Shown here in pieces: positions 1,891 through 63,536 of a DNA stretch of 64,000 bases (position 1 is the stretch's first letter; each line of letters starts with the position of its first letter). Below the pieces are notes generated by a model. The model saw only the letters and a program-made list of their open reading frames with translations, was not told where the DNA came from and searched no databases. The position numbers and the translations under genes were made by a program. This stretch comes from a bacterium. Its GTDB lineage: Bacteria; Elusimicrobiota; Elusimicrobia; UBA1565; UBA9628. The stretch lies in assembly GCA_021782205.1 (NCBI GenBank), contig JAJXVH010000010.1, positions 75 through 64,074 of the forward strand, given 5' to 3'.

Positions 1891-2053
1891 GGTTGTGTTC
1901 CTCCTGTGTCTATGACGCCACGGACGCGAATCTGTGTCGTTTGCGTACGCCCTGAGTCTAACAGACCGTGGGTGGGGTGTCAAGCAAACGGCGTGTCAAC
2001 CCGGTCACATGCTTTTGGATCGCCATGCCGCGGTTTTTGGTAGGATTGCGACC

Positions 2054-2599
2054 ATGCCGAACGCCGATGAGCGCAACCTGATCTGGCTGGACCTGGAGAT
2101 GACGGGGCTGGATCCGGAGAAGGACGTGATCCTAGAGATCGCGACGGTCGTCACCGACGGCCAGCTCAACGTGCTGGCCGAGGGGCCGTGCCTGGCGATC
2201 CATCATCCGGACGCGGTGCTGGACGGGATGGATCCGTGGTGCGTCGAGCAGCACGGCAAGTCCGGCCTGACGCAACGCTGCCGCGAGTCTAAAATCTCGA
2301 CGCTGGACGCGCAGGCGCGCACGTTGGAATTTTTGGCGCCGCTGTGCGCGGCGGGCAAGTCGCCGCTGTGCGGCAACACCATCGGTCAGGACCGGCGCTT
2401 CCTTGTTAAGTATATGCCGCGCCTGAACGATTTCTTCCACTACCGCTCCATCGATGTCTCCTCGATCAAGGAGCTGGTTTCGCGCTGGTATCCCGAGGCG
2501 AAGTACGTGTACTCAAAGACCAAGCAGCACCTGTCGCTGGCCGACGTACACGAGTCCATCGACGAACTGCGCCACTACCGCAAGACCGTCTTTCGCTGA
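2054..2599 (+). CDS. orn: oligoribonuclease
   Basis: 181 aa DEDDh exonuclease: [13 protein letters not shown]..., [21 protein letters not shown]. Start ATG 2054 is preceded by TGgTAGGAT plus 7 nt. Confidence 0.9.
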
Positions 2600-2617
2600 A
2601 GCGCCCGCCGGACGGCG

Positions 2618-2917
2618 TCAGTTGCCCGTCGACTTGCGCTCGGCGTGCCCGCCGATGCCTTCGCAACCGCAGGACTCCGGGTGCGGCTGGCCTTCGCGCC
2701 AGCCGTCCTTCTCCAGCTGGACCTTGACCCAGCACGGGTAGCAGAGCATCAGGCGGTTGATGGGCTTGTTGTCGCCGCAGCGGCGGCACAGGCCGTCGGT
2801 CGGCGGCTTGCGCTTCATGAGCTTGCGCAGGTCGGACTCCTCTTCGGGAGCCTCCTTGACGGGGGCGTCGGTCTGGGGGCCTTCGATGATCAGTTCTTCG
2901 GCCAAGGTTTCGGTCAT
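2618..2917 (-). CDS. small Cys-rich zinc-ribbon protein, function unknown
   Basis: 99 aa with strong G/C third-position bias. Contains CRRC...CYPC plus CGC. Last gene of the hpnG-ispA-dxs-ispH transcription unit, starting 17 nt after the ispH stop. Confidence 0.5.
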   Translation of the reverse strand: MTETLAEELIIEGPQTDAPVKEAPEEESDLRKLMKRKPPTDGLCRRCGDNKPINRLMLCYPCWVKVQLEKDGWREGQPHPESCGCEGIGGHAERKSTGN

Positions 2918-2934
2918 GGAGTTCTCCGCGGGCG

Positions 2935-3918
2935 TCAGGCCGCGCCGCTGTCCTTGATGAGCTTGACGATCTCCGCGGGCAGGCCGAAGTGCTCGGTCTC
3001 CTCCACGGTTTCCAACTCCTCCACGCTCTTGACGCCGTAGCGGTCGTGGGCCAGGGCGACGACTTCCTGGATCAGGATCTCGGGCGCGGACGCGCCGGAG
3101 GTCAGACCCATGGTCTTGACGCCCTCAAGCCACTCGTCCTTGATGTCGGCGGCGCGCTCGATGAGGTAGGAGCGGATGCCCTTGGAGCGGGCGACCTCGC
3201 AGAGGCGGTTGGAGTTCGAGCTGTTGGGCGCGCCCAGCACCAGCAGGACTTCGACCTGCGGGATCATCGCCTTGACCGCGTTCTGGCGGTTCTGGGTGGC
3301 GTAGCAGATGTCGTCCTTCTTGGGCGGCATCAGCTTGGGAAAGCGCCGCTTGAGCACGGCCACGATCTCGCGCGTGTCGTCGAGCGACAGCGTGGTCTGG
3401 GTGAGGTAGGCGATTTTTTCAGGGTTGGGTACCGCGATGGTCTCGGCTTCCTGGACGTTGCCGACCACGAGCATGTGCTCCGGCGCCTCGCCGAGCGTGC
3501 CGATGGTCTCCACGTGATCGCGGTGGCCGATCAGGATGATGGTGTAGTCGTGCTTGGCCAGCGCGATGGCTTCCAGGTGCACCTTGGTCACCAGCGGGCA
3601 GGTGGCGTCGATGATCTTGAGCTTGCGCGCCTTGGCTTCCGACACCACGTCCGGGCCCACGCCGTGCGCGGAGAAGATCAGCCAGGAGCCCTCGGGGACC
3701 TCCTTCAAATCCTCGACGAACACCGCGCCTTTCTTGCGCAGTTCGTCGACGACGTAGCGGTTGTGGATGATCTCGTGGCGGACGTAGACGGGCTTGCCGC
3801 ACAGCTCCAGGGCGCGCTCGACGACCTCGATGGCGCGCACCACGCCCGCGCAGAAGCCGCGGACCTTGGCGAGGATCAGCTTGTCGATCTTGATCTGAGA
3901 CGGGGCTTGGGGGCTCAT
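2935..3918 (-). CDS. ispH: 4-hydroxy-3-methylbut-2-enyl diphosphate reductase
   Basis: 327 aa with GFCAGVVRAIE, ATCPLVTKVH and ICYATQNRQ (the three Fe-S cysteines). Confidence 0.95.
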   Translation of the reverse strand: MSPQAPSQIKIDKLILAKVRGFCAGVVRAIEVVERALELCGKPVYVRHEIIHNRYVVDELRKKGAVFVEDLKEVPEGSWLIFSAHGVGPDVVSEAKARKLKIIDATCPLVTKVHLEAIALAKHDYTIILIGHRDHVETIGTLGEAPEHMLVVGNVQEAETIAVPNPEKIAYLTQTTLSLDDTREIVAVLKRRFPKLMPPKKDDICYATQNRQNAVKAMIPQVEVLLVLGAPNSSNSNRLCEVARSKGIRSYLIERAADIKDEWLEGVKTMGLTSGASAPEILIQEVVALAHDRYGVKSVEELETVEETEHFGLPAEIVKLIKDSGAA

Positions 3919-3931
3919 GTTGACTCCTTGC

Positions 3932-6702: not shown

Positions 6703-6722
6703 GGCGCGCGCCAGCGTCGTGT

Positions 6723-7448
6723 TCAAATCGCCTCCAGGTACGCCTTCAAAAACCGTGACAGCGTCTTCATCGCGCGTCCGGTCCGCAGTCCCACGCCGAT
6801 CATGCCGGGCAGGCCGGCCGCGTGCGTCAGCGCGAACTTCGCCAAGGACGCCGCGTCCTCGCCTTCGGGCGCGTCGCCGGGCAGTTCCTCGTCCAGCTCG
6901 TCTAAAACCACGCGCACGCCGATGGCCGGCGCCTTCGGCGACGCCCAGCGCCGCACCGCCGCCGTCTCCATGTCGCACGCCACCGCGCGCTGCTCCGCGC
7001 CCAGCTTGCGCTTCATCTCCGGCTTCAAAACGACGTTCGTGTGCAGTATCCGTCCAAAGTGAAACGCCAGTCCCAGATTCTTCGCCGTCTCGCGCAGCGG
7101 CCGCACGAAGTCCATCTCCACTTCGGCCGGATCGGCGACGACGTCTCCCAAATGCACGTCCGGATTCATCGCCCCGCAAAGACCCGCGCTCAGCACCAGC
7201 CCGAAGTCTCCGGCCACGAAATCCTTAGCCAAAACCGCGGAAGTCTTCTGCGCCCCCATGCCGGTCTTGACCAGCACCACGCGCCGGCCGCCCAAGTTGC
7301 CTTCCCAGCGCCCGTCGCCGGAGGGGGACAGACCCAAGCCCTTCGCGAGCGGCTGAGCCTCCCATTTCGTCGCCGCCGTGATGAGAACGGGCGTCTTCGG
7401 GAGCTTGATCTGGGGCGTCTGGGATGATTCTTCCATCAACTGGGCCAT
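6723..7448 (-). CDS. hpnG: hopanoid-associated phosphorylase (adenosylhopane nucleosidase-like, PNP/UDP fold)
   Basis: 241 aa with VLVKTGMGAQKT and ACDMETAAV, typical of the PNP_UDP_1 fold, and hopanoid gene context. Confidence 0.8.
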   Translation of the reverse strand: MAQLMEESSQTPQIKLPKTPVLITAATKWEAQPLAKGLGLSPSGDGRWEGNLGGRRVVLVKTGMGAQKTSAVLAKDFVAGDFGLVLSAGLCGAMNPDVHLGDVVADPAEVEMDFVRPLRETAKNLGLAFHFGRILHTNVVLKPEMKRKLGAEQRAVACDMETAAVRRWASPKAPAIGVRVVLDELDEELPGDAPEGEDAASLAKFALTHAAGLPGMIGVGLRTGRAMKTLSRFLKAYLEAI

Positions 7449-7625
7449 CCTGTCTATTATCCCATTTTTCGACCCATTTTTGAGGGGTTTTTAGACGGTG
7501 GAATGTCTTTTTCGTCACATGAATGTGGCGGAGTTGTCGCCGGTGCAGGATCAACTTGAAGCGATCTCCAATGTTCGCCGCGTGCCTGGCCCTTGTCTTT
7601 TTAGGTTAGGGGCCGCCATGTCGTA

Positions 7626-7997
7626 TCAGGCCAGGACCGGGTGCCGTTGCCCGTGCGCCATCGCGATCAGGTAGAGCGCGTATTGGTTGACCGAGATGCC
7701 CTCGACCTGCGCCGCTTCGCGAAGGCTTTTCTGGAGCGTCTTGGGGAGACGCAAGAGCACGCGGCCGTCATTTTCTTGACCCGCGGCCGGTTTCGGAATC
7801 GAGAGCCCGGCCGAGCGGCGCACGTCCAGATGGAGCTGGATGGCGACGTCCAGTTCCTTCAATGCCTCCGCGTCGGTGTCGCCGTGAGCCGCGCACCCCA
7901 TGAGCTCGGGCGCGACCGCGACCCAGCACTTGTCCTCGGGGCTGAAGAACACTTTGCGGACGTAGGCGCTTCCCGGCACCGCGCGCATCTTTCTCAT
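7626..7997 (-). CDS. hicB: HicB-family antitoxin (HicB fold plus C-terminal ribbon-helix-helix)
   Basis: 123 aa. N-terminus FSPEDKCWVAVAPELMGCAAHGDTDAEALKEL; C-terminus RLPKTLQKSLREAAQVEGISVNQYALYLI (RHH). GGGAG lies 7 nt upstream. Starts 21 nt downstream of hicA. Confidence 0.75.
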   Translation of the reverse strand: MRKMRAVPGSAYVRKVFFSPEDKCWVAVAPELMGCAAHGDTDAEALKELDVAIQLHLDVRRSAGLSIPKPAAGQENDGRVLLRLPKTLQKSLREAAQVEGISVNQYALYLIAMAHGQRHPVLA

Positions 7998-8018
7998 ATC
8001 GAATCTCCCTGGTGTCGC

Positions 8019-8261
8019 CTATTTCAATTTCAGCCCGTATGCGTCGACGGCCTGGAGCAACTGGACGATCTGGTATGACTTCGCCTCGCCGCCCGACTCT
8101 TGAATGTTGAGAACCGCGCCGCAGGGATGGCGATAGGCTTTGTGGCTCCCGCGCTGCCGGTCGAACGCGAATCCGAGCGCCTCGATCAGCGCGACGAAAT
8201 CCGAGAAGCGCACGTTCTGTCTCTTGATCCGTATCCGTGCCAAGAGCGCCCGCGCCTTCAT
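8019..8261 (-). CDS. hicA: HicA-family mRNA-interferase toxin
   Basis: 80 aa. FVALIEALGFAFDRQRGSHKAYRHP carries the HicA GSH signature. Toxin-first order as in hicAB. Confidence 0.75.
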   Translation of the reverse strand: MKARALLARIRIKRQNVRFSDFVALIEALGFAFDRQRGSHKAYRHPCGAVLNIQESGGEAKSYQIVQLLQAVDAYGLKLK

Positions 8262-8267
8262 TCCTGC

Positions 8268-8296
8268 ATGATATCACCGGCGGCACCTTCTGTCAA
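8268..8296 (-). promoter_or_regulatory. candidate hicAB promoter (TTGACA-17-TGaTATCAT); the -10 ends 6 nt before the ATG
   Basis: Minus strand reads cTTGACAgaaggtgccgccggTGaTATCATgcaggaATG. Consensus -35, 17-nt spacer, extended -10, no SD. Confidence 0.5.
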
Positions 8297-10633: not shown

Positions 10634-10660
10634 GACGTTCTCCTTGCGGCTCGAAAATTC

Positions 10661-12685
10661 CTACGCGCGCGCGCGGCCCGACAGCAGGGCCTTGCGATAC
10701 GTTCCCAGCGCCTGGAGGGGGAAGTAGTTGCGATACATCGTGTATTCCAGGTAATAGACCTTCGGAAATCCAGTGCCGGTGAACTCCGTCTCATCCCAGG
10801 TGCCGTCCACGCGCTGGGTGGCGGCCAAGTAGGCCACGCCGCGGCGCACGCTCTCGTCGTCGGCTCCGGCGGCGAGCAGGCCCATCAGCGCCCAAGCGGT
10901 CTGCGCGGGCGTGGAGGGGCCGCGGCCCTTGGCGGCGGGATTTTCGTACGTCTCGCACGTCTCGCCCCAGCCGCCGTCGGCGTGCTGGACGGACCGGAGC
11001 CACGCGGCCGCGCGCTGGACGTAGGGCTTGCGCATGTCCTCGCCGATGGCGGCCAGGCCGCGCAGGGACTGCCAGGTGCCGTAGATGTAGTTGACGCCCC
11101 AGCGTCCGTACCAGGAGCCGTCGGTTTCCTGCTCGGCCTTCAGAAACTTGATGGCCTTGTGGACGGGCGCGTAGCTCTCGTCGTAGCCCACGCAACCCAG
11201 CAGTTCCAGCACACGCGCGGTGATGTCCGACGTGGGCGGGTCGATCATCGCGTTGTGGTCGGCGAACGGGATTTTGGTCAGGACGACCTTGGTGTTCTCC
11301 TTGTCGAAGGCCGCCCAGCCGCCGGTCGCCGACTGCATGGAGAGAATCCAGTTGAGGCCGCGCAGGAACGATTTCTCCCGGATTTGCGCGTTCGTGTCTT
11401 CCAGGTGGACGTGGCGCAGGGCCAGCAGGACCATGGCCGTGTCGTCGACATCCGGGTAGAAGACGTTGTTGAATTGAAAATGCCAGCCGCCGGTGGGGCC
11501 GTGCGGGTTGGTGACGGCCCAGTCGCCGCGGACCTTGATCTCCTTGGAGATCGTCCACTGGCAGGCCTGCACCAGCGCTGGATGCGCGCGGTCCAGGCCC
11601 GACTCCGCCAGCGCGATCATGGTGATGGCCGTGTCCCAGACCGGCGAGCGCGAGGGCTGATAGCGCGTGGAGTCCGTGCCCGGGTGCTCCAGGCGGTCGA
11701 GCTCCTGCAGAAGAGAGACCAGCCGAGGGTCCGTGTCCGGGTAGCCCAGGCACTTCATGGCCATGATCGCGTTGACGATGGGCGGATAGATGGCGCCGGG
11801 GCCGTCGGAGTCCTGCAGGCGCTCCAGGATCCAATCCTCCGCCAGGCGCAGGGCCCAGACGCGAATCCAATGGCCGCCGCGGCCTTCCATGCCCTTTAAG
11901 AAAGAGTCCCACATCAGGAAGAACGTGGTCCAGGAGACCAGGCGGTGCGGACCCACGGCCTCGGAGAGAGGGACGTGGCGGCGCGTGTCCGGGAACAATT
12001 CGTCGATGGTGGCGTGCGCGGGACACGGCACCGCGGGCTGGAACGCCCAGACGATGGACAGCGGCACCACGATGGGCCGCGTCCAGGCCGACATCTCATA
12101 GAGGTTGAAGTAGAACCACTTTGGGAACAGCATGATCTCCGGGGGGATGGAGGGCACGCCGCGCCAGTCGTATTGGCCGAACAAGGCGAGGTAGAACTTG
12201 GTGTAGGAGTTGACCTTGTGGATGCCGCCCAGCGCCTTGATGCGCTTGCGCGCGGACTCCAGGCACGGCTCCTGCGGCGAGTGGCCGGCGAACTTCAGGG
12301 CCCAGTAGGCCTTGACCGTCGCGGAGATTTCCGAGGGGCCGTTGTCGTAGATGGGCCAGCCGCCGTCCGGGTTCTGCTTGTTGAGGAGGTGGTTGGCGAT
12401 GCGCCGGACCTTGATCGAATTTCCCCGGCCGAGGAAATTCAGCAGCATGATCGTGTCCGAGTCGATGGTGGTGTCGCCGAAGATCGGGCCGCACCAGTAG
12501 CCTTCCTCGGGATTCTGCTGGCGCAGGAGCGCCTCCTGCGAGCGGCGGATGGTCTGGGTTAGAGCTTCCGGCAGGGGGCCTTCGGCGGCCGCGGGGGCGT
12601 CCGGGCGGACGTGATCGGCCCAGTCCTGGGGTTTTCTGTAGCGGCGGCCTTCGGCCAGCCAGCCTGAGACCAGGTTTTTGAGCAT
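10661..12685 (-). CDS. shc: squalene-hopene cyclase
   Basis: Contains the DVDDTA catalytic motif (FYPDVDDTAMVLLAL) and multiple QW repeats (DGGW, GGWG). Start moved to ATG 12685 (MLKNLVSGWL) because TGgTATAAT sits 7 nt upstream. The track start (GTG 12712) would lie upstream of that -10. Confidence 0.93.
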   Translation of the reverse strand: MLKNLVSGWLAEGRRYRKPQDWADHVRPDAPAAAEGPLPEALTQTIRRSQEALLRQQNPEEGYWCGPIFGDTTIDSDTIMLLNFLGRGNSIKVRRIANHLLNKQNPDGGWPIYDNGPSEISATVKAYWALKFAGHSPQEPCLESARKRIKALGGIHKVNSYTKFYLALFGQYDWRGVPSIPPEIMLFPKWFYFNLYEMSAWTRPIVVPLSIVWAFQPAVPCPAHATIDELFPDTRRHVPLSEAVGPHRLVSWTTFFLMWDSFLKGMEGRGGHWIRVWALRLAEDWILERLQDSDGPGAIYPPIVNAIMAMKCLGYPDTDPRLVSLLQELDRLEHPGTDSTRYQPSRSPVWDTAITMIALAESGLDRAHPALVQACQWTISKEIKVRGDWAVTNPHGPTGGWHFQFNNVFYPDVDDTAMVLLALRHVHLEDTNAQIREKSFLRGLNWILSMQSATGGWAAFDKENTKVVLTKIPFADHNAMIDPPTSDITARVLELLGCVGYDESYAPVHKAIKFLKAEQETDGSWYGRWGVNYIYGTWQSLRGLAAIGEDMRKPYVQRAAAWLRSVQHADGGWGETCETYENPAAKGRGPSTPAQTAWALMGLLAAGADDESVRRGVAYLAATQRVDGTWDETEFTGTGFPKVYYLEYTMYRNYFPLQALGTYRKALLSGRARA

Positions 12686-12726
12686 GGGGGAGATTATACC
12701 ACGCCGGAGCACTCCCGCCGACGTGG

Positions 12727-12778: not shown

Positions 12779-13663
12779 TCAGCGCGCGAAGGCCAGCGCC
12801 CCAGGGGCGTAGGAGACCTGCGCGGTCTTCAGCTCAGGTGTGAATTCCGCCGAGGAGACCGAGCCGACACGCTCGACCGAGTACTCCACGTAGTAGCGGC
12901 TGCCGGCCGCGGGCTTCTGGGAGAACTGGGCGGCGTAGCGGTTGAGGTCCACGTCGTAGGACGCGGCCACGGGGAGGGTGACCGACGTCTCAATCAAAGA
13001 CTCGTCGGGCCAGAAGTCGACGTGCTTCTTGAGCTCGACCTTGACGACGGTCTGTTCGCCCTTGTAATACGTGGACCACTTGTCGGTCAGCTGGAGATGA
13101 AGCTGGGCGTTCAGTTGGCCGGTCACGCCCACGGGATCCGGCGCCTCCGGCGTGCGCGCACCGGCGGAGACCACCACGCCGCCGGTGTCGTAGCCGTCGG
13201 AGACGACCTTGAACGAGTAGGCGGCCTGCACCGGGTCGGTGGTCAGCCACGGGCCCTGCAGGCAGACACGGAACACGTTCTGCTCCCAGGGGAGCAACGG
13301 CTGAGGATTGGAGATGGTCACGGTCACCTGCTGGCTCCAGGAGTTGCCGGGCACGTCCCAGCACTGCTGGCTTCCGTAGGGTGGAGCGCCCACGTATTGG
13401 CACTGCGTGTCCCATTCCTGACTTTTCAGCCAGACGCCGTTGGACGTCGGCTTGTCGCCGGCGTGGAAGACGATGTTCGTGCAGGACATGTCGTAGCGCA
13501 TGCCCATCATCGACTGGGTCTTGGTCGTGTCTTTCGCGGCGGCCATCTTCGCTTGGGACGCCAGGGCGGAAACGTCCACACCTTGGTCGAAGGACGCGTC
13601 TGGTGCTGAGAACGCGGGGGCGGCGGCGAGGAGGAGGACGGCGAGGGTCGGCGTTAGGGTCAT
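12779..13663 (-). CDS. secreted hypothetical protein (Cys-containing, beta-rich)
   Basis: 294 aa with signal peptide (LLLAAAPAFSAP), GGAGG 7 nt upstream and its own terminator. I recognise no family. Confidence 0.6.
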   Translation of the reverse strand: MTLTPTLAVLLLAAAPAFSAPDASFDQGVDVSALASQAKMAAAKDTTKTQSMMGMRYDMSCTNIVFHAGDKPTSNGVWLKSQEWDTQCQYVGAPPYGSQQCWDVPGNSWSQQVTVTISNPQPLLPWEQNVFRVCLQGPWLTTDPVQAAYSFKVVSDGYDTGGVVVSAGARTPEAPDPVGVTGQLNAQLHLQLTDKWSTYYKGEQTVVKVELKKHVDFWPDESLIETSVTLPVAASYDVDLNRYAAQFSQKPAAGSRYYVEYSVERVGSVSSAEFTPELKTAQVSYAPGALAFAR

Positions 13664-13734
13664 CGGGAGCCTCCGGGGCTGGGATTACGAAGATGATACC
13701 CGAAAGGCCTAGCCGATGTCTAGGACTTTGCGTC

Positions 13735-13899: not shown

Positions 13900-13961
13900 G
13901 ATCGCCGCGCCCCGCGCGGTTCTTCGCGGCGGTTTTGAGAGAAAATATGTATGATCGCGCC

Positions 13962-14618
13962 ATGCGCACGCTTACGATGGCTTTTATGCTGACCGTGGCG
14001 CCGTGTTTGGCGCAGACCTCCGCGCCCTACGGCCTTGCGGGCTCCTATCACGCCGCGCTGGAGCTGGTGGACGGAGCCTTCGCGACGATGAGCGGCGGAC
14101 TGTTTTTTCCGGATGAAGCTTCCGAGGGCCCGGCTCCGGAGAACATCGACGCGGCGCCGCACGGCTTTCATCTGGTGTCTCCCGGTCTTTACCGTTCGGC
14201 TCAGCCGTCGCTGGAGAACATCGGCTGGCTGAGCGGCTTCGGCATGGCGACCTTGCTGGACCTGCGCGACCCGATCACCGCGGCGCTGGAGCGCCGCGCG
14301 GCCGCGCGCGCGGGCATCGGCGTGGAGAGCGTGCCGATGAGCGGCGCGTGGGCGCCGACGTTCGGAGAATTGGACCGCGCGCTGGCGGTGCTGACGGACC
14401 CGGCCACGCCGCGGCCCATCTTGGTCCATTGCCTCCACGGCCAGGACCGCACCGGCGTGGTGATCGCGGCCTACCGCGTGATCGTCGAGGGCGTCTCTCC
14501 GACGCAGGCCGCCGCAGAGGCCCAGGGGTTCGGCTGCTGCCATCTTGTCACGCGGGATCTGCGCGGATTGTTGGAGCGCTACCGCCGCCATGTGCGGCGT
14601 CAGTTCCGCCGCTATTGA
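13962..14618 (+). CDS. secreted Cys-based protein tyrosine/dual-specificity phosphatase family protein
   Basis: HCX5R(T) P-loop VHCLHGQDRTG. Signal peptide MRTLTMAFMLTVAPCLAQ. Start ATG 13962 is preceded by TATGAT plus 6 nt. Confidence 0.75.
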   Translation: MRTLTMAFMLTVAPCLAQTSAPYGLAGSYHAALELVDGAFATMSGGLFFPDEASEGPAPENIDAAPHGFHLVSPGLYRSAQPSLENIGWLSGFGMATLLDLRDPITAALERRAAARAGIGVESVPMSGAWAPTFGELDRALAVLTDPATPRPILVHCLHGQDRTGVVIAAYRVIVEGVSPTQAAAEAQGFGCCHLVTRDLRGLLERYRRHVRRQFRRY

Positions 14619-15708: not shown

Positions 15709-17205
15709 CTAGGAGCGCGCGGCGGCGCGGCGCTTGGCCAGCACGCTGTGATGGCGTCCGTAGGAGAAATAGATGGCGAAGCCGATGCCCAGCCAGATGA
15801 TCAGCCGCCACCAGTTCTCGACCGGCAAGGAGAACATCAGCAGGAGGCAGAAGCCGATGCCAAGCATGGGCACCAGCGGCACCATCGGACAGCGGAAAGG
15901 CCGGTCCGCCTCGGGGTTGGTCTTGCGCATGATCAGCACGGCCCCGCAGACGATGACGAAGGCCAGCAAGGTGCCGATGTTGACCAGTTCCGCGAGTATG
16001 CGCAGGGGCACGAAGGCGGCCATCGTGGCCACGATGATGGCGGTGAGAATGGTGGACTTGTAGGGCGTGCGGAACTTCGGGTGCACGGCACCGAAGAAGC
16101 TTTCCGGTACCAGCCCGTCGCGCGCCATGGCCAGGAACACCCGCGGCTGGCTGAGCATCATGACGAGCAGGACCGAGGTGATGCCCGCGATCGCGCCCAG
16201 GGAGATCAAGAACTGCGCCCAGGGCAGGCCCACTTGGCGGAAGGCGTCGGACACTGGGGAGTCGATGCTGAGTTTCCCGTAGGGGACCATGCCGGTCAGG
16301 ACCGCGGTGACCAATATATAAAGGATAGTGCACACGATCAGCGAGGTGATGATGCCGATGGGCAGGTCCTTCTGCGGGTTGATCGCCTCCTCGGCGTGGG
16401 TGGAGATGGAGTCGAAGCCGATGTAGGCGAAGAAGATCATCGCCGCCCCCGCGAAGACGCCCAGCGGCTCCCCGTTGGCGCCGGTCTGGCCCATCAAGGT
16501 CCTGCCGAAGAAGCTGACGCCGGTGTAGCCGAACGGGGCGAACGGGTGCCAGTTGGCGGGCTTGACGTAGAACGCGCCCACCACGATGACGAAGAGCACG
16601 ATGGTCACCTTCGTGATCACCATGGTCGTGTTGAACGTGGCGCTCTCTTGAATGCCGATGACGAGGATGGTCGCGACGATGGCGGTGATGACGATGGCGG
16701 GCAGGTCGAACCAGGTGCCGGTGGCGGCCAGGTGGCCGACGGCGTTGAAGTCGAAGGGCGCGTTGGAGAGCACTCGGGGGATGTGCAGTCCGAACACGCT
16801 GATGAAGTCCTGGAAGTAGTGCGACCAGCCGTGGGCGACGGCGGAGGAGGCGACGGTGTACTCCAGGATCAAATCCCAGCCGATGATCCAGGCGAAGAGC
16901 TCGCCCAGAGTGGCGTAGGCGTAGGTGTAGGCCGAGCCCGCGATGGGCACCATGGAGGCGAACTCCGAATAGCAAAGTGCCGCGAAGATGCAGGCCACGC
17001 CGGCCAGCACGAAGGAAAGGATCAGCGCGGGGCCGGCCTTGTCGTGCGCGGCCACGCCGGTCAGCACGAAGATGCCGGTGCCGATGATGGCACCCACGCC
17101 CAGGCTGGTCAGATGGAGCGGCCCCAGCACGCGGTGCAGTCGATTTTCGCCCTTCATTTCTTCCAGCAGAAGACTGAGGGGTTTGGTCTCGAACAGGTGC
17201 TTCAT
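15709..17205 (-). CDS. APC-family (cationic) amino acid permease
   Basis: Start moved to MKHLFETKPL (ATG 17205, GGAGG 8 nt upstream). SLGVGAIIGTGIFVLTG is the signature of APC/CAT transporters. A TATAAT at 17257-17252 would give a UTR of about 45 nt. Confidence 0.9.
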   Translation of the reverse strand: MKHLFETKPLSLLLEEMKGENRLHRVLGPLHLTSLGVGAIIGTGIFVLTGVAAHDKAGPALILSFVLAGVACIFAALCYSEFASMVPIAGSAYTYAYATLGELFAWIIGWDLILEYTVASSAVAHGWSHYFQDFISVFGLHIPRVLSNAPFDFNAVGHLAATGTWFDLPAIVITAIVATILVIGIQESATFNTTMVITKVTIVLFVIVVGAFYVKPANWHPFAPFGYTGVSFFGRTLMGQTGANGEPLGVFAGAAMIFFAYIGFDSISTHAEEAINPQKDLPIGIITSLIVCTILYILVTAVLTGMVPYGKLSIDSPVSDAFRQVGLPWAQFLISLGAIAGITSVLLVMMLSQPRVFLAMARDGLVPESFFGAVHPKFRTPYKSTILTAIIVATMAAFVPLRILAELVNIGTLLAFVIVCGAVLIMRKTNPEADRPFRCPMVPLVPMLGIGFCLLLMFSLPVENWWRLIIWLGIGFAIYFSYGRHHSVLAKRRAAARS

Positions 17206-17440
17206 CGGCGGCGTGCCTCCGGTGTCATCGGGATCGGGCGTCGATCCTACCATTATATCGTCCGTTTGGTCGGACCGATGTTCTCGATCAGGAGGTCTTT
17301 GGTCCTATGACTGTTTGGGGCGATCGCCTCAGGCGCGCATCCACGGTGCCGACTACACTTCGGTCGTAGTTGAAATGAATACTCTGTAGCCTGGGGGATC
17401 GGCCCCGGGGCATCCACGATCCGGCCGCAACCGGGTGAGA

Positions 17441-24495: not shown

Positions 24496-24562
24496 AAATG
24501 TCCAATGTTATTATGTAAATAACATAAATACACTGGACACATTTAAGGTGGCGACGTATAAT
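24496..24562 (+). promoter_or_regulatory. promoter (TGGACA-17-TATAAT) with an overlapping nested palindrome; candidate operator of the CarH/LitR-like regulator
   Basis: The only A/T-rich island in this region. -35 TGGACA at 24534-24539, 17-nt spacer, TATAAT at 24557-24562, GTG 6 nt later. Inner inverted repeat ATGTTATT(24505-12)/AATAACAT(24518-25). Outer repeat AAATGTCCA(24496-504)/TGGACAcATTT(24534-44), which overlaps the -35. Confidence 0.55.
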
Positions 24563-24568
24563 TCACGT

Positions 24569-28695: not shown

Positions 28696-28841
28696 GCCAG
28701 CCTCTCAGTCGTGCTGCGCGCAGACCACTCCAGCTTCTGCGCTGGTTCGGCTCTCACTGATATCCGCGCGCGGCGGGGCCCCGGCCGTTTTCCGCCTTGA
28801 ATGTCGTATCATTATCGACCGTGAAGGATGCCTCGGCGACG

Positions 28842-47997: not shown

Positions 47998-48117
47998 AAT
48001 TTCTCCGTGATCGTCGTATGAAGGATTTATTTTACCAAATTCGACCCGCGAATGGACGAGCCGTCGTCGGGGCGCCGACTCCTGGCGGACGGGTCACTCA
48101 TCTGTTAGACTGGTTCC

Positions 48118-49141: not shown

Positions 49142-51973
<2,832 letters not shown>

Positions 51974-52110
51974 GAACGTCCATTTTATCATTTCCGGCCG
52001 TGGAGCTTCATTGGAATGGAACAAAAGAGGGGGTCGCCGCGTATGTTTGGTGAGCTGGGCCCTAAATTCAATCCCGACTAAAACAGTCAACTGACGCTGG
52101 AGTCACCAAA

Positions 52111-53241: not shown

Positions 53242-54799
53242 TGGGCCGGCGCAGGCGGTCGTTCTTTTTCGGGTAGTTCAAGGTATAGTGCAGGCCGCGC
53301 GACTCCTTGCGCGCCAGCGCGCCGCGGATCACCAAGGTCGCCACGTCGGCGATGTTGCGCAGTTCCACGATGTCCGGCGTGGGCACGGTGCTCCAGTAAT
53401 ATTCGGCGATCTCCCGGTTGAGCATCTCCATGCGCGAAAGCGCGCGCGCCAGGCGCTTGTCGGTGCGCACGATGCCCACGTAGTTCCACATCAGCCGGCG
53501 CACCTCGTCCCAATTCTGGGTGACGACGACGGCCTCGTCGGAGGTCGCGGCCTTGCCGTGACGCCAGGGCGCGGCGGTAAACGGCGCCGGGCGGGGCCGG
53601 GAGCGCGCGTCGGCCAGGTGCTCGGCCAGGCGGTGCGCGAACACGCAGCCTTCCAGAAGAGAGTTGGAGGCCAGGCGGTTGGCGCCGTGCAGGCCGGTGC
53701 GCGCGGTCTCGCCCACGGCGAACAGGCGCGGCACGGAAGTCCGGCCCCAGACGTCGGTGGCCACGCCGCCGCAGAAGAAATGCGCCGCCGGGACCACGGG
53801 GATGGGCGCGGCCGCCATGTCGATGCCGAAGCTTAGGACCTTCTCGTAGATGTTGGGAAAGCGCGCCTTCAGGAATTTGCGCGGGTGATGCGTCATGTCC
53901 AGGAACACGCACTCGTCGCCGGTGCGCTTCATCTCCGCGTCGATGGCGCGCGCGACCACGTCGCGCGGAGCCAACTCCGCGCGGCGGTCGTAGCGCGGCA
54001 TGAAGCGCGCCCCATTCTTGAGACAAAGCCTCCCGCCTTCGCCGCGCAGGGCCTCGGAGAGCAGGAAGCTCTTGGCCAGCGGGTGGAACAGGCAGGTGGG
54101 ATGGAACTGCACGAACTCCATGTCCGCCATGCGCGCACCCGCGCGCCACGCCATGGCCATTCCGTCGCCGGTCGCGATGTCGGGGTTCGAGGTGTAGAGA
54201 TAAACCTTTCCCGCTCCGCCGGTCGCCAGCACGGTGGCGTCGGCGACGAAGGGCGCGATGCGGCCGTCCGCGCGGTCCATCACGTAGGCGCCGCGGCAGG
54301 CGCCGGAGCGGTCTCGGAGCAGATCGACGGCCAGGTGATCCTCGACGATCGTCACCGCCTTGGCGCGGCGCACGGAGGCCACGAGCGCGCGCTCGATCTC
54401 GCGGCCGGTGATGTCGCCCGCGTGCAGGATGCGACGGTGGGAGTGTCCCGCCTCAAGCCCCAGGTCCACCGCGGCCTCGCGCTCGGAGAAGCGCACGCCC
54501 AGCTCCTGGAGCTCGCGAACGCGCGCGGGCGCCTCGGACACGGTCAGGCGCACCACCGCCTCGTCGCACAGTCCGGCCCCGGCGATCAAGGTGTCCTTGA
54601 CGTGGGACTCGAAGCTGTCCAGCGCGCTGATGACCGCGGCGATGCCGCCCTGGGCGTAGTTCGTGTTCGACTCGGCGGCTTCCTTCTTGGTGACCAAGGT
54701 CACCCGGCCCAGACGTGAGAGCTTCAGCGCGGAGAGTAGTCCGGCGATGCCCGAGCCGAGGACCAGGAATTCAGTGCGTCGCGCGCCGTGTGAAGTCAT
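53213..54799 (-). CDS. nadB: L-aspartate oxidase
   Basis: 528 aa with VLGSGIAGL, YAQGGIAA and RLFAVGETARTGLHGANRLASNSLLE. Confidence 0.9.
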   Translation of the reverse strand: MTSHGARRTEFLVLGSGIAGLLSALKLSRLGRVTLVTKKEAAESNTNYAQGGIAAVISALDSFESHVKDTLIAGAGLCDEAVVRLTVSEAPARVRELQELGVRFSEREAAVDLGLEAGHSHRRILHAGDITGREIERALVASVRRAKAVTIVEDHLAVDLLRDRSGACRGAYVMDRADGRIAPFVADATVLATGGAGKVYLYTSNPDIATGDGMAMAWRAGARMADMEFVQFHPTCLFHPLAKSFLLSEALRGEGGRLCLKNGARFMPRYDRRAELAPRDVVARAIDAEMKRTGDECVFLDMTHHPRKFLKARFPNIYEKVLSFGIDMAAAPIPVVPAAHFFCGGVATDVWGRTSVPRLFAVGETARTGLHGANRLASNSLLEGCVFAHRLAEHLADARSRPRPAPFTAAPWRHGKAATSDEAVVVTQNWDEVRRLMWNYVGIVRTDKRLARALSRMEMLNREIAEYYWSTVPTPDIVELRNIADVATLVIRGALARKESRGLHYTLNYPKKNDRLRRPITFRRALSR

Positions 54800-54836
54800 G
54801 TTGAAAGGGGAGGCCGGGAGTGCTAGATTCTAACAC

Positions 54837-55361
54837 ATGCTCCGAACATTCGCCTCCGCCGCCCCCAAGCTCCACGCCTCGGCCTTCGTCCACGACTCCG
54901 CCGAACTCATCGGCAAGGTCTTTCTGGAGCGCGAGGCGTCCGTCTGGCCCGGCTGCGTCCTGCGCGGCGACATCGACCGCATCGTCGTCGGCGCGCGCGC
55001 CAACGTCCAGGACCTCACCGTCATCCACACGCGCGACGGCCACCCCACGATCATCGGCCCCGGCGTCACCGTCGGCCACCGCGTCATCCTGCACGGCTGC
55101 AGCATCGGCGCGCGGGCGCTGATCGGGATGGGCGCCATCATCATGGAGGCGGAGATCGGCGCGCGCTGCCTGATCGGCGCGGGCGCTTTGATCCCGGCCG
55201 GCATGAAGATTCCTCCGGGCGTGCTGGTGCTGGGCGCGCCGGGAAAAGTCGTGCGCAAGCTGCGCGCCGACGAGCTGCGCATGCTGGCCGAAAGCGAGCG
55301 CGACTACGTGGCGCGCGCCAAGGCGCACGCGGCGCAGTCCCGGCCGGTGTTCGGACGCTGA
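54837..55361 (+). CDS. gamma-class carbonic anhydrase family (hexapeptide-repeat, YrdA/PaaY-like) protein
   Basis: 174 aa left-handed beta-helix: SVWPGCVLRGD...VGARANVQDLTVIH...GHRVILHGCSIG. Confidence 0.85.
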   Translation: MLRTFASAAPKLHASAFVHDSAELIGKVFLEREASVWPGCVLRGDIDRIVVGARANVQDLTVIHTRDGHPTIIGPGVTVGHRVILHGCSIGARALIGMGAIIMEAEIGARCLIGAGALIPAGMKIPPGVLVLGAPGKVVRKLRADELRMLAESERDYVARAKAHAAQSRPVFGR

Positions 55362-56134
55362 TGCCGGCTTGGGCGGCGTTCGCGCTGGGCGCGGCGTCGG
55401 GCGCGGGCGCGGCGGCGGTCGCCGCACGGCTTCTGCACCGGCGCTGGAGGGAGCGCCGCGGTCGCCTGCTGGCTTTCGCTCTGCACGAGTTGAACACGCC
55501 CGCGACCGCCGCCACGCTGACCTTGGTCAACCTGGCCGACGGAGTGTTCGGCGACCTGACCGAGCCGCAGGCCAAGTGGACGGGCACCGCGCGCGATCAG
55601 CTTGAGCGCCTGGGCGCGATCGCGGGAGAGGCGCGCGACTTGGTGCACCTGGAACTGCTGGGCGGATTGAAGCTGCACGTGGAGCCGGTCTCGGCCGAGG
55701 AGCTGGTGGACGGCGCGCTGTCCGGCGCGCGCGGCGCCTACGCGCACGCCGACATACCGCTGGAGCACGCGCTGGAACAGGGCCTGCCGGAGGTGCTGAC
55801 CGACGCGGAGCGCGCCGGGCGCGCTCTCTCCGGCCTGCTCTATCACGCGCGCAAGTTCCGCGCCGCCGGTCCCGTGCGTCTGCGCGCGCGGCGCGCCGGC
55901 GACGCGGTGGTCTGCGAGATCGACTATGAGTCCGTCGCCACGACCCCGGCCGAGGCCGAGGCCAGCCTGGACCTGTTCTATCCAGCGCGCGCGCGCAAGG
56001 ACCACGTGCTGCCCGCGTCCGGCCTGGGTTTGGGCCTGAGCCGCGCCGTCATGCGCCTGGCCGGCGGCGACGTGGACTGCGCGGTCGAGGGCGGCCGCGC
56101 GCGGCTGGCGCTGATCCTGCCGGCGCGGCCGTGA
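55361..56134 (+). CDS. membrane-anchored histidine kinase-like protein with a degenerate ATPase domain
   Basis: 257 aa with one TM helix and H-box FALHELNTP. The G2-like box SGLGLGLS is present, but the N-box Asn is replaced (LLYHARKF) and I see no DxGxG. Overlaps the gamma-CA gene by 1 nt (TGATG). Confidence 0.6.
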   Translation: MPAWAAFALGAASGAGAAAVAARLLHRRWRERRGRLLAFALHELNTPATAATLTLVNLADGVFGDLTEPQAKWTGTARDQLERLGAIAGEARDLVHLELLGGLKLHVEPVSAEELVDGALSGARGAYAHADIPLEHALEQGLPEVLTDAERAGRALSGLLYHARKFRAAGPVRLRARRAGDAVVCEIDYESVATTPAEAEASLDLFYPARARKDHVLPASGLGLGLSRAVMRLAGGDVDCAVEGGRARLALILPARP

Positions 56135-56167
56135 CGCGCAATCGGAGGAACTGCTAATCTCATGACC

Positions 56168-57598
56168 ATGATCCGACCGCTCGCGGCCGCCGTCTTCGCC
56201 CTGGCGCTGAGCCGTCCCGCTTCCGCCTTGGAGGCCGCCGCCGCGAAAGTGGACATCACGCCGGACCTCAAGACCGAGAAAATATGGCTGGGGGGCTTCG
56301 GCGCCGTCGGGCGCAGGCCCGAGGGCGTGCACGACCCGCTGTACGCGCGCCTGCTGGTCCTGCGCGAGGGGTCGCAAGAGGTCGCGGTGGTGGCCGTCGA
56401 TCTGTTGGGCTTCTACCGCAACGACGTGCAGGACCTGCGCCGGCTGTCCGGCTTCGACCGCCCCGACCGCGCGCTCTTTTTGGCGTCCACGCACACGCAT
56501 TCCGGCCCGGACACCCTGGGGCTGTGGGGGCCGTTCATCGGCGTGTCCGGCGTCAACCGCGCCTATCACGCGCGTCTGAAAGCAAAGATCGCCGACGCGC
56601 TGAAGCTTCTGGAAGGCCAACTGCGGCCGGTTGCCGCGCGCGGCGGCCACGGCCTGCTGGACCCGCGCGGGCTTTGCCGCGACTCGCGCGACCCGCAGAT
56701 CATCGATCCGAACCTGGGCGTCCTGCGCCTGGTCGGCCGCGACGGCAAGGCGGTGGCCACGGTGGTCAACTGGTCCTGCCACGCCGAAGTCATCGGTCGC
56801 CACAACATGCTGGTGACGGCGGATTTTCCCGGGCCGCTGTGCGCGCGCGTGGAGGAGAAGACCGGGGGCGCGTGCGTGTTCTTGAACGGCATGATCGGGG
56901 GGCTGATGACGCCGGACTCGCGCGCGGAGAACTTCTACGAGTCCGACCGCATCGGCCAAGCGGTCGCCGACGCGGCGCTGGCCTTGAAGACCTCGGCCGC
57001 GCCCGCGCGCGCGCTGGCCCTGCGCTCCGAGAAAATACTCGTGCCCATCGAAAACTCGCGCTACCGCCTGCTCCTGCCCGCGCTGACCTTCGGCCATCAT
57101 CTCTACGACGCTCAGGACCGCGAGCTGCCGAATTGGAAGGCCTGGACCTTGGCCCTGCGCGAGGCCGTGCTGGGCTTGGACCAGGACACCGAGCCGTGGG
57201 TGGAAAGCGAGGTCTCTTTGCTGGACGTCGGCCCCGCGCGCCTGCTGGGCGTGCCCGGTGAGGCGTTTCCGGAATTGGCCATCGGCGGCTACGACGGCCG
57301 CTACTCATTCGGCCGGCCCGTGATCACGCCGGGCAACCCGAATCCTCCCGATCTGTCGAAAGCGCCGAAGGCGCCGTATTGGCGCGACCTGGTCAAGGCC
57401 CCGGCGCCCATGCTGGTGGGCCTGACCGACGACGAACTCGGTTATTTCGTGCCCGTGTATGATTTCAAGGCCAGCCCGCACAAGATCATGCTCCCGCGCC
57501 TGCCCGGCAACCACTACGAGGAGACCAATTCCATCGGGCCCTCCGCGGCGGGGATCGTGAACGCCGCGGTCGCGCGTCTGGTCGAGGAGAAAAAATGA
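56168..57598 (+). CDS. neutral/alkaline non-lysosomal ceramidase N-terminal domain family protein (secreted)
   Basis: Signal peptide MIRPLAAAVFALALSRPASA. Motifs KVDITP...GVHDPLYARLLVL...VAVVAVDLLGF...ASTHTHSGPD. Start set to ATG 56168 (TGcTAATCT 7 nt upstream); the track start is 56162. Confidence 0.75.
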   Translation: MIRPLAAAVFALALSRPASALEAAAAKVDITPDLKTEKIWLGGFGAVGRRPEGVHDPLYARLLVLREGSQEVAVVAVDLLGFYRNDVQDLRRLSGFDRPDRALFLASTHTHSGPDTLGLWGPFIGVSGVNRAYHARLKAKIADALKLLEGQLRPVAARGGHGLLDPRGLCRDSRDPQIIDPNLGVLRLVGRDGKAVATVVNWSCHAEVIGRHNMLVTADFPGPLCARVEEKTGGACVFLNGMIGGLMTPDSRAENFYESDRIGQAVADAALALKTSAAPARALALRSEKILVPIENSRYRLLLPALTFGHHLYDAQDRELPNWKAWTLALREAVLGLDQDTEPWVESEVSLLDVGPARLLGVPGEAFPELAIGGYDGRYSFGRPVITPGNPNPPDLSKAPKAPYWRDLVKAPAPMLVGLTDDELGYFVPVYDFKASPHKIMLPRLPGNHYEETNSIGPSAAGIVNAAVARLVEEKK

Positions 57599-58686: not shown

Positions 58687-58713
58687 CTCACTTCCATTCT
58701 CGCCAAACTGGCC

Positions 58714-59328: not shown

Positions 59329-59410
59329 TTCCGATTCTTCGCGCCACGAATTGCTTCGGATCCGTCGGCGCGGCCATTTCAGCTGGTGCCCGAAACCAGG
59401 CGACCACGCT

Positions 59411-61438: not shown

Positions 61439-61671
61439 GGGCGGGCGGGCTCCACGCGGATGCGCGAGAGCAGCCGCCGGTCCAGCGCGAGCAGCTGGGA
61501 GCCCACCAGGCACTCCACGGGGTCGCGCAGAGGCGTGAGCATCAGCTTGACGACGGACACTCCCGGCCGCAGTCCCAGTCCGGACAGGCGCGCGCGTTCG
61601 GACTCGCCCACCGCCGGCAGAAAGCCGGCGACGACCAGCGGCGCGTCCAGCGCGGCTTCGTCCAAAGTCAT
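61435..61671 (-). CDS. feoA: ferrous iron transport protein A
   Basis: 78 aa FeoA SH3-like: RLSGLGLRPGVSVVKL...PVECLVGSQLLALDRRLLSRIRV. Confidence 0.8.
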   Translation of the reverse strand: MTLDEAALDAPLVVAGFLPAVGESERARLSGLGLRPGVSVVKLMLTPLRDPVECLVGSQLLALDRRLLSRIRVEPARP

Positions 61672-61754
61672 GGAGTATTATAACCTTGTTGAGATTTAAT
61701 ATCAATAATAGCCGCCGCGGCCCCGCGGCGCGGCGTTTTGGTATCATCACGCGC

Positions 61755-62831
61755 ATGAGCCGCGACCCCATCGCCCGACTGGAAGCCGCCCGCGAAGCCC
61801 TGGACGCCGGCCGTCCGGACCGCGCCGAGCGCGCGTTGAGCGGAGCCTTTCCGAATGGCTTCGCGGGGGAGGCTCTTTTCCTGCGCGCCGAGGCCCTGCG
61901 CGCGCAGGGTTTTTTCCGCCGCGCGCAGGCGGCCTATCGCGCGGCCCTCAAGAAGTTGGGCGGTGAGGACGACCTTTTGATCGGCGCGCATCTGGGCTTG
62001 GCGCGCGCGGCGCGCAGCTTGGGCGAAACCGCCGACGCCCGGCGCGACATGAAGGCGGCCCGGGCCTTGGCCCGCCGCGGCGACGCGGAACTGACGGAGA
62101 CGCTGACGCTCGAAGACGCGCTGGTGGAACGCGCGGCGGGCGATTATCCGCGCGCGCTGAAAGCGCTGGCGCCGCTGCTCGCGGCCGCGCGGCGGCGGCG
62201 CGACTGGTCCGCCGTGGGCTTCATTCTGTGGGCGACCGGCGGCGCGCGCCGTTTTTCCGGGGACCTGGCGGGCGCGCACGCGGATTTCCGGAGTTCGCTG
62301 GCGGCTTTCCGTCGCGCCCAGGACCGCGAGGGTGAGGTCTACGCGCTGTTCGGCCTGGGCGGCATCGCGCGCGTGCGCGGTTTTTTCACCGAGGCGCGCG
62401 CGGCGTACGCGGACGCGGGACGCCTGCTAGGGCGCGGCCCGGATTTGTTCGGCCGTGCCTACGCGCATTGCGGCCTGGCCAACGTGCTTCGGCAATTGGG
62501 ACACTGGGGACAAGCGGAGAGGCACTACCACCGGTCGTATGAGTTGTACGCGCGCCTGGACGACCGCGTCGATCTGGCCTACGTGGACTGGGGACTGGGC
62601 CAAGTGCATCTCAAGCGCGGCGAATTGGCGGCGGCCGAGCGCCGCTTCGAGGCGGCGCGCGCGGCCTTCGCGGCGGGCGACGAGGCGCGGGGCGAGGCGC
62701 TGTCCTTGCACTCTCTGTCCCAGGTCCTGCACGCGCGCGGCCGTACCGCGCTGGCGGAGAGGACCTTCGACGCGGCCGTGCGCCGCGCGCGCGGCGCGGG
62801 CCTGCACGCGCATCTCGAGATCTACACGTGA
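61755..62831 (+). CDS. tetratricopeptide repeat protein
   Basis: Start moved to MSRDPIARLE (ATG 61755; TGgTATCAT 7 nt upstream). Has repeated A..Y..AL...G/D..G.A helix pairs (CHAT-less NB-TPR-like tandem TPRs). Confidence 0.7.
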   Translation: MSRDPIARLEAAREALDAGRPDRAERALSGAFPNGFAGEALFLRAEALRAQGFFRRAQAAYRAALKKLGGEDDLLIGAHLGLARAARSLGETADARRDMKAARALARRGDAELTETLTLEDALVERAAGDYPRALKALAPLLAAARRRRDWSAVGFILWATGGARRFSGDLAGAHADFRSSLAAFRRAQDREGEVYALFGLGGIARVRGFFTEARAAYADAGRLLGRGPDLFGRAYAHCGLANVLRQLGHWGQAERHYHRSYELYARLDDRVDLAYVDWGLGQVHLKRGELAAAERRFEAARAAFAAGDEARGEALSLHSLSQVLHARGRTALAERTFDAAVRRARGAGLHAHLEIYT

Positions 62832-63283
62832 TCCTGCGCCGGGCGCGGCGCGAGGACGTGCCCGCGATCGTCGCGCTCTTTCAAGAGGATTTTTTTGGCG
62901 CGGAACGCGAGTCGCCGAAAGGCGCGCCCCTGCCGGATTCCTACGCGGCGGCGTTTGACGCCATCGACCGCAATCCGGACGTCGAGCTGATGGTCGCCGA
63001 AGACGCTGGGCGGGTGATCGGCGGCCTTCAGCTCACCGTGCTGACCTACCTCAGTTTTCGCGGCGGCCGCGCGGGCCTGATCGAGAACGTCCATGTCGCC
63101 GCGTCGCACCGTAACCGCGGCGTCGGCCGCGCGCTGATGGAGCGCGCTCTCGCGCGGGCGCGCGAGAAGGGGTGCGCGCGCGTTCAGCTGACCACGAACA
63201 AAGCGCGCGCGGACGCTCGCCGGTTTTACGAGCGCCTGGGCTTCCAGGCGACGCACGAAGGCATGAAGCGGACTCTGCCGTAA
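62828..63283 (+). CDS. GNAT family N-acetyltransferase
   Basis: 151 aa. The acetyl-CoA motif HRNRGVGRALMERAL fits Q/RxxGxG/A. GTGA overlap with the TPR gene. Confidence 0.8.
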   Translation: MILRRARREDVPAIVALFQEDFFGAERESPKGAPLPDSYAAAFDAIDRNPDVELMVAEDAGRVIGGLQLTVLTYLSFRGGRAGLIENVHVAASHRNRGVGRALMERALARAREKGCARVQLTTNKARADARRFYERLGFQATHEGMKRTLP

Positions 63284-63317
63284 CAAGTCGGCAACGCGGC
63301 TTTCGTAGTCTGCCCCC

Positions 63318-63536
63318 ATGGGACAGAAAATCTGGGACGTGCTCACTTCGTGCGAAGGCGGCTGGGCGGCGATCGCCCGCGACGGCAAAGTGATCGCGCG
63401 GGCGGGCTCGCTGGAAGAGGCCGAGCGTCTGGCCGCCGCGGACCGGCACCGCGTCACGTTCGTCTATTCCGCCCGCGCCGAGGCCGAGCGGCCGACGGAG
63501 GCCGAGGTCTCCAAGCGCCGGCGCTTCGGCTCTTAG
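63318..63536 (+). CDS. small hypothetical protein
   Basis: 72 aa with G/C-rich third positions. TAGTCT sits 6 nt upstream of the ATG. No family recognised. Confidence 0.45.
   Translation: MGQKIWDVLTSCEGGWAAIARDGKVIARAGSLEEAERLAAADRHRVTFVYSARAEAERPTEAEVSKRRRFGS

Follow-up and report, generated by a model that had tools for sequence, protein, structure and literature searches.

Promoter-like −10 boxes next to the start codons of operon heads predict leaderless mRNAs in a G+C-rich Elusimicrobiota contig

The DNA analysed here, hereafter the window, is a stretch of 64,000 nucleotides of contig JAJXVH010000010.1 (assembly GCA_021782205.1) from a bacterium of the phylum Elusimicrobiota, with a base composition of 62–70% G+C. 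Many of its operons open with a gene whose start codon is preceded, within 5–8 nt, by a hexamer resembling the −10 element of bacterial promoters, commonly with TG one base further upstream. An earlier note, made from the letters of the sequence, had listed 13 such elements and proposed that the mRNAs concerned are leaderless. All 13 were found again with the same positions, strands, spacers and start codons, and one site absent from that list fits the same pattern, namely TATCAT-8-GTG before a Wzy_C/TPR gene (28807–28823). Pfam agrees with most of the gene names that the note had given, including orn (RNase_T), hpnG-like (PNP_UDP_1), hicA, hicB, shc, a dual-specificity phosphatase, a MerR plus B12-binding (CarH/LitR-like) regulator, Peptidase_MA_2, a hexapeptide-repeat (gamma-carbonic-anhydrase-like) protein, feoA and TPR, as well as dxs, ispH, polyprenyl synthase, hpnH-like and hpnA-like genes. 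The gene that it had called LPP20 has no Pfam match, and the adjoining gene is LpoB. Four DNA runs of a mine-drainage metagenome cover the window almost completely, and the nearest UvrA proteins (98%, then 87–67% identity) carry source names of Elusimicrobia or Elusimicrobiota metagenome-assembled genomes (MAGs).

Genes were called by codon bias, with all in-frame candidate starts of each gene allowed. Among the 56–57 genes called in this way, 13–14 have TANNNT at a spacer of 5–9 nt, compared with a mean of 4.9 genes (range 3–9) in the remaining 5-nt bins out to 59 nt (Poisson p 0.0006–0.002). Counted from the word rather than from the gene, the extended form TGNTANNNT occurs 23 times on the two strands of the window and is followed by ATG at a spacer of 5–8 nt in 9 of these cases (binomial p ~3e-7, at a per-position ATG frequency of 0.011). 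The peak in the word-to-ATG histogram is weak for TANNNT taken by itself, with no TGn required (19 observed vs. 15.5 expected), which is why gene-anchored counting was needed. In the relatives this histogram is inflated by the anchor genes, with about 20 orthologous shc sites, and it was not treated as independent evidence. One might suppose that scarce A/T-rich words simply gather in intergenic DNA, some of them near starts, and that a reader who picked both the sites and the starts selected the fitting cases, an account with which the weak TANNNT peak would agree. We hold this to be extremely improbable, since the unselected positional tests are significant, the other upstream bins of the same intergenic regions are not enriched, and orthologues whose proteins are 69–90% identical keep the box and its distance in an otherwise randomised sequence. 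The note's statement that boxes at one fixed register are unlikely by chance was thus borne out.

In the curated gene map of the window, 22 genes head a transcription unit and 28 are internal genes in tight coupling. A box, TAnnnT in each case except for the GATAAT of hpnG, which departs from the TAnnnT claimed for the whole list, lies 5–9 nt before the start of 12/22 heads and of 0/28 internal genes (Fisher p 5e-6, an optimistic value as head starts were chosen partly with the box known). Shine–Dalgarno (SD) sequences are absent from all 12 boxed heads but present at 17/28 internal genes and at 6/10 unboxed heads; six of the ten unboxed heads have TAnnnT 18–46 nt upstream instead. The SD-led heads named by the note (1890, 13663, 47997 and 52111) were confirmed. 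Two listed sites proved not to be operon heads, those of a ceramidase-like gene and of a small open reading frame (ORF), which lie 33–35 nt behind a co-oriented upstream gene. The claimed lack of SD sequences holds essentially throughout, apart from the ceramidase-like gene, where an alternative start, ATG 56162, has GGAGGA 12 nt upstream. Some half of the heads in the window (12/22) thus have the build predicted to give leaderless mRNAs. This build is kept in related high-GC Elusimicrobiota. Across all 14 sites, the spacer between hexamer and start codon is 5 nt once, 6 nt five times, 7 nt six times and 8 nt twice.

For the comparison of individual sites, relatives were fetched as six syntenic uvrA loci (UvrA 74–87% identical), 36 shc loci (57–90%) and two CarH-like loci, referred to below by L numbers. 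The clearest case is shc, the squalene-hopene cyclase gene at the head of a shc/hpnH/hpnA operon, which has TGgTATAAT 7 nt before ATG (12683–12701, minus strand). In 18 aligned sequences (17 relatives and the window; 69–90% protein identity), TATAAT is the sole invariant non-coding block and lies 6–8 nt before ATG or GTG, while all other upstream bases vary. The TG is kept in 14/18 sequences, and the four without it (L100, L101, L103 and L120) have a −35-like TTGCAA upstream, at 18 bp from the hexamer in L100, the only one where the gap was counted. At uvrA (51971–51990, minus strand; TGaTAAAAT, 8 nt, ATG), all six relatives have aaTGnTAnnnT 7–10 nt before ATG or GTG amid unrelated flanks, with the hexamers TAGGAT, TAAAAT, TAAGAT, TAAACT and TAATAT, which differ only at the three middle positions. 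This variation follows the sigma-70 rule, in which T at −12, A at −11 and T at −7 are fixed and the three middle positions are free.

Similar conservation was found at other heads. The oligoribonuclease gene orn (2038–2056, plus strand; TGgTAGGAT, 7 nt, ATG) keeps its box in 3/5 relatives, as TGGTAGTAT-6-GTG in L088, TAGGAT-6-ATG in L121 and TACAAT-7-ATG in L091. A Peptidase_MA_2 gene (48103–48120, plus strand) has TGtTAGACT 6 nt before ATG, and an identical or similar extended −10 is found 6–7 nt before the start in L081, L082, L083, L084 and L085, the tally of relatives keeping the box being 4/4. At feoA, the head of feoAB (61669–61705, minus strand; TTGATA, 17 bp, TATAAT, 5 nt, ATG), all four relatives (L081–L084) have TATACT or TATAAT 6–7 nt before ATG-ACN-CTN-GAY-GAG. 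The TPR protein gene divergent from feoA (61739–61757, plus strand) has TGgTATCAT 7 nt before ATG, and its orthologue in L082 reads TGGTATCAT-6-ATG followed by the N-terminus MSQDPFARLD. The CarH/LitR-like regulator gene that heads a photolyase operon (24534–24571, plus strand; TGGACA, 17 bp, TATAAT, 6 nt, GTG) keeps its box in both orthologues, as TTGACA-17-TATACT-6-GTG in L167 and as TGGACA with a 14-bp gap and TGgTAGACT-7-ATG in L168. The additional Wzy_C/TPR site (plus strand) has neither TGn nor a −35 hexamer and offers an alternative start at ATG 28842; in L092, L094 and L095 the box of the orthologue, TGCTAATCT or TGCTAGTCT, is placed 8 nt from ATG.

Two heads show the box following gene arrangement or phylogenetic distance. 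The hexapeptide-repeat, gamma-carbonic-anhydrase-like gene, an operon head (54801–54839, plus strand; TTGAAA, 17 bp, TGcTAGATT, 7 nt, ATG), has an identical promoter in L081–L084, at a spacer of 7–9 nt, and thus in 4/6 relatives; the more distant L085 and L086 have a different promoter together with an SD sequence, ttttatcataat-cgaaGGAGact-ATG. The hpnG-like gene opens a unit with polyprenyl synthase, dxs and ispH (7446–7464, minus strand; TGgGATAAT, 7 nt, ATG). Where its relatives head their own unit (L116, L090, L092 and L094), aaaaTGGGATAAT lies 7–9 nt before ATG, and where the gene abuts an upstream gene (L088, L121, L099 and L104) there is no box. That hpnG is boxed only as an operon head supports a promoter function of the box.

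In their anatomy, too, the sites look like promoters. TG stands one base upstream of the hexamer at 9/14 sites, and a strong −35 element matching TTGACA in 5–6 of 6 positions lies at exactly 17 bp at hicA (TTGACA), CarH (TGGACA), gamma-carbonic anhydrase (TTGAAA) and feoA (TTGATA). Sites with TGn are mostly without a −35, and sites without TGn mostly have a good one at 17 bp, as at CarH and feoA, where TGn is missing and the −35 matches in 5/6 positions. A compensation of weak or absent −35 elements by TGn, as expected for extended −10 promoters, therefore appears to hold as a correlation. The mean best −35 score is 3.4 at the sites, a value reached by 0/2000 resamples, compared with 2.4 at random positions.

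These features bear on a different account of the box, in which it is a non-SD translation signal, such as an A/U-rich enhancer or an S1 site comparable to those of GeneMarkS-2 group B, on mRNAs that start further upstream. The box does lie where a ribosome-binding site would be, several sites have no recognisable −35, and nadB and pilC, described below, suggest that leadered mRNAs devoid of SD sequences probably exist in the window. Yet a translation signal should also occur at internal genes, an argument made for group B (PMC6028130), and none of the 28 carries the box. The TG two bases upstream and the −35 at exactly 17 bp are features read by RNA polymerase, what is conserved is the pattern T-A-n-n-n-T and not an A/U-rich run, and the hpnG box is lost where that gene is joined to the one upstream. 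We consider a translation signal of this kind highly improbable.

If the boxes are real promoters, the start codons beside them might still be the wrong ones, with translation beginning at a downstream in-frame codon and the first part of each ORF serving as the leader. Start codons are indeed predictions, and downstream alternatives exist in orn (GTG 2126 with GGAG), hpnG (ATG 7436 with AGGA at 11 nt) and the phosphatase gene. Most sites, on the other hand, have no downstream combination of SD sequence and start within 30 codons, and residues are conserved from position 1–2 in UvrA, Shc, the gamma-carbonic anhydrase, FeoA, Orn and CarH. UvrA has a conserved N-terminus MDxIxVxGAR from residue 1, and its full-length homologues are mostly 942–946 aa long, in agreement with ATG 51973; tblastn matches to Shc start at query residue 1; and the FeoA and MerR profiles begin at residues 1–5, with profile positions 1–74 of Pfam FeoA corresponding to residues 1–75. 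The Pfam RNase_T match in Orn begins at residue 10, and the downstream starts of this gene (ATG 2099 and GTG 2126) lie inside or after the LDLEMTG exonuclease motif. Downstream starts would delete this motif or, in the regulator, the MerR helix-turn-helix. Mis-assigned starts as a general explanation seem to us highly improbable. For the CarH-like regulator, the public call (295 aa, GTG 24548) is seven codons longer and runs through the TATAAT box, and 11/13 homologues have their first residue where GTG 24569 would place it, which makes a mis-annotated start in the public record likely. The note had held that the pattern changes several start calls, and homologues support its revisions for uvrA, shc and this regulator, while the ceramidase-like gene is ambiguous.

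We turn to the reading in which the boxes are −10 elements of housekeeping sigma-70-type promoters located at operon heads and the mRNAs are predicted to be leaderless, which we regard as likely. Bacterial RNA polymerase usually initiates some 7 nt downstream of the −10 hexamer, with a preference for a purine. Given spacers of 5–8 nt, transcription would thus begin at the A/G of ATG/GTG or 1–2 nt before it. The resulting mRNA would have no space for an SD sequence, and translation would proceed from the 5′-terminal start codon, as in Actinobacteria and Deinococcus-Thermus, while downstream genes of the operon would rely on ordinary GGAG-type SD sites. The leaderless reading is a well-supported prediction. 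The sequences themselves show the promoter anatomy, the enrichment by position, the confinement to heads, the conservation in relatives and the match of start codons with homologues, and from these we infer where transcription starts and that translation is leaderless.

Several observations weigh against this reading or narrow it. Neither TGn nor a −35 is present at three sites, those of the phosphatase, the Wzy/TPR gene and the small ORF. Some orthologues have spacers of 8–10 nt, which would leave their mRNAs a short leader of 1–3 nt. Neither a pyrimidine at −1 (12/14 candidates vs. 20/33 other genes) nor a preference for ATG (12/14 vs. 27/33) sets the candidates significantly apart from other genes. 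The ceramidase-like gene has GGAGGA nearby and is unboxed in most relatives. Three small metatranscriptomes from the same study yielded zero contigs on 54300–55400, with a word share for shc of 0.00. Finally, the word 'pervasive' used in the note rests on 64 kb and on relatives that are mostly syntenic with it; these support conservation and are not independent genome-wide samples.

Beyond the window, a crude gene-anchored TANNNT count was used, in which the spacer 5–9 bin is divided by the average over the bins spanning 15–59 nt and which has low power in A+T-rich DNA. The ratio is 2.7 in the window, 2.5 in the Elusimicrobiota loci around uvrA and 1.7 in those around shc, compared with 3.2 in Actinobacteria, which are known to be rich in leaderless genes, 1.3 in Proteobacteria, 0.8 in Thaumarchaeota, 0.7 in Firmicutes and 0.7 in four low-GC Endomicrobia/Elusimicrobia loci. 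The loci used as phylum controls were the distant-phylum UvrA loci (52–62% identity) among the matches listed. The suggestion that the arrangement is a lineage-level trait is thus matched by a 1.7–2.5-fold positional enrichment in contigs of related high-GC Elusimicrobiota. The high-GC free-living Elusimicrobiota of mine drainage, groundwater and soil may well be a further major lineage, alongside Actinobacteria and Deinococcus-Thermus, in which about half of the transcription units are leaderless, mainly with extended −10 promoters that lack a −35.

Comparable gene organisation has been described in other bacteria. Zheng et al. (2011) identified TAnnnT about 10 bp before the translation start as the signature of bacterial leaderless genes and found that orthologues in close relatives switch between SD-led and leaderless forms (PMC3160421). 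The group C genomes of GeneMarkS-2 have a Pribnow box 6–8 nt from first-in-operon starts, with 25–50% of operons concerned (PMC6028130); in Deinococcus deserti, 47–60% of mRNAs are leaderless by differential RNA sequencing (PMC4007540), and in D. radiodurans the adjacent −10 motif has been validated by experiment (PMC12340547). With group C (Mycobacterium tuberculosis, Streptomyces and Deinococcus-Thermus; PMC6028130, PMC3160421, PMC3898074, PMC4007540, PMC12340547) the window shares TAnnnT 6–8 nt before first-in-operon starts, boxed genes without and internal genes with SD sequences, a G+C-rich genome, and little information in the three middle box positions. About half of the heads in the 64-kb window have the box, where 25–60% are affected in group C taxa. 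Orthologues of the permease appear to switch between SD-led and leaderless forms here too, as Zheng et al. (2011) describe. It differs from those taxa in its phylum, Elusimicrobiota, and in the unusually high frequency of the TGn extension, found at nine of the 14 sites; the leaderless arrangement described here is predicted from sequence. The extended −10 sigma-70 promoters of Escherichia coli and Gram-positive bacteria share the TG one base upstream of the hexamer and the trade-off between TGn and −35, a likeness that here is one of sequence correlation only. Archaeal leaderless transcripts (group D) have 5′ ends at start codons, as predicted here, and internal SD sites, but they are driven from a TATA box some 26 nt upstream, in contrast to the bacterial −10 box 6–8 nt upstream found here.

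A full-text literature search for 'leaderless' together with 'Elusimicrobia' returned no report for the phylum, the co-occurrence that was examined being incidental. Elusimicrobia are not mentioned in the main texts of PMC3160421 and PMC6028130, and the supplement of Zheng et al. (2011) gave no match. What we describe is a known gene organisation, of the group C type, in a lineage for which no published report was found, and it reveals no new mechanism. Its interest is moderate and lies chiefly in annotation and in the comparative study of translation initiation. Gene callers that reward SD sequences can misplace leaderless starts, as exemplified by the CarH-like regulator, called seven codons too long relative to 11 homologues, and shc, uvrA and the phosphatase gene would likewise come out too long if their longest ORFs were taken. 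If the prediction is true, gene-start annotation of these high-GC Elusimicrobiota MAGs would be systematically biased, an uncultured phylum would join the few bacterial lineages that use leaderless initiation as a main mode of expression, and the phylum would be informative on the gain, retention and loss of this mode. The conserved compact promoters are open to direct testing, for instance TGGTATAAT-N7-ATG of shc.

Leadered heads in the same window provide contrast cases. The B12-binding radical-SAM gene that the note had named hpnJ (47995–48037, minus strand) has GGAG at 5 nt and TGgTAAAAT at 31 nt upstream of ATG. SD-led heads of the window remain SD-led in relatives, as in this gene, whose SD reads catGGAGa in 5/6 relatives and tacGGAGa in L081. 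A gene resembling those of outer membrane proteins (13661–13698, minus strand) has GGAGG at 6 nt and TATCAT at 29 nt upstream of ATG. The L-aspartate-oxidase-like gene nadB (54797–54835, minus strand) has TGtTAGAAT 27 nt before ATG and no SD, from which a C-rich, SD-less leader of about 20 nt would follow. Its element TGTTAGAAT on the minus strand and TGCTAGATT of the gamma-carbonic-anhydrase gene on the plus strand overlap back to back by 3 bp (54797–54839), an arrangement kept in L081–L084, and polymerases at the two boxes probably exclude each other.

Leader type also varies among orthologues. The amino-acid permease gene (window 17205–17262) is SD-led with a 30–40-nt leader in the window, L116 and L090, and has TAGAAT-6-ATG in L089. 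As far as sequence can tell, close relatives have thus switched this gene between a leadered and a leaderless form, and a box in L089 where the others are SD-led supports the promoter reading. At pilC (T2SSF; window 40016), TTGACA and TGTTACACT lie 8–11 nt before ATG in L085 and L086, L081 has an SD-led leader, and in the window the leader is SD-less and some 20 nt long, placing a single promoter at three distances from the start.

The least certain sites are three. The dual-specificity/Tyr phosphatase-like gene (13950–13964, plus strand; TATGAT, 6 nt, ATG) is a weaker site that lacks both a TGn in register and a −35 hexamer, and in-frame ATG 13947 and TTG 13935 are other candidate starts. The weakest site is that of a 72-aa ORF (63306–63320, plus strand; TAGTCT, 6 nt, ATG), which has a low coding score (15), no Pfam family, no TGn and no −35, and lies 34 nt behind a co-oriented gene. 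The ceramidase-like gene (56152–56170, plus strand; TGcTAATCT, 7 nt, ATG), whose Pfam Ceramidase_alk score is under the cut-off, has a possible internal promoter 33 nt past the stop of a histidine-kinase gene. In L082–L084 it is coupled to an upstream response-regulator gene and has no box, and in L081 the box lies 32 nt from the called start. The response-regulator gene that stands between the histidine-kinase-like and ceramidase-like genes in L082–L084 is missing from the window (56135–56167) and from L081, where a short gap with TGCTAaTCT or TGCTAgTCT takes its place.

The toxin gene hicA, head of hicAB (8259–8296, minus strand), has the full consensus sigma-70 promoter TTGACA, 17 bp, TGaTATCAT, 6 nt, ATG, and the downstream hicB has GGGAG at a spacer of 7 nt. 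No orthologue of hicA was found in the 36 shc-anchored relatives (tblastn, E 1e-8), and in several relatives hpnG lies directly behind the upstream gene. From these two observations hicAB (window 7626–8296) looks like a recent insertion that brought its own consensus promoter, TTGACA-17-TATCAT.

In a more distant set of loci (L123–L166; shc 46–52% identical), TANNNT is in 2.0-fold excess at spacer 5–9, with an ATG peak at spacer 8 after the extended word TGNTANNNT. A −10 box adjacent to the start may therefore also be found in other lineages that produce hopanoids.

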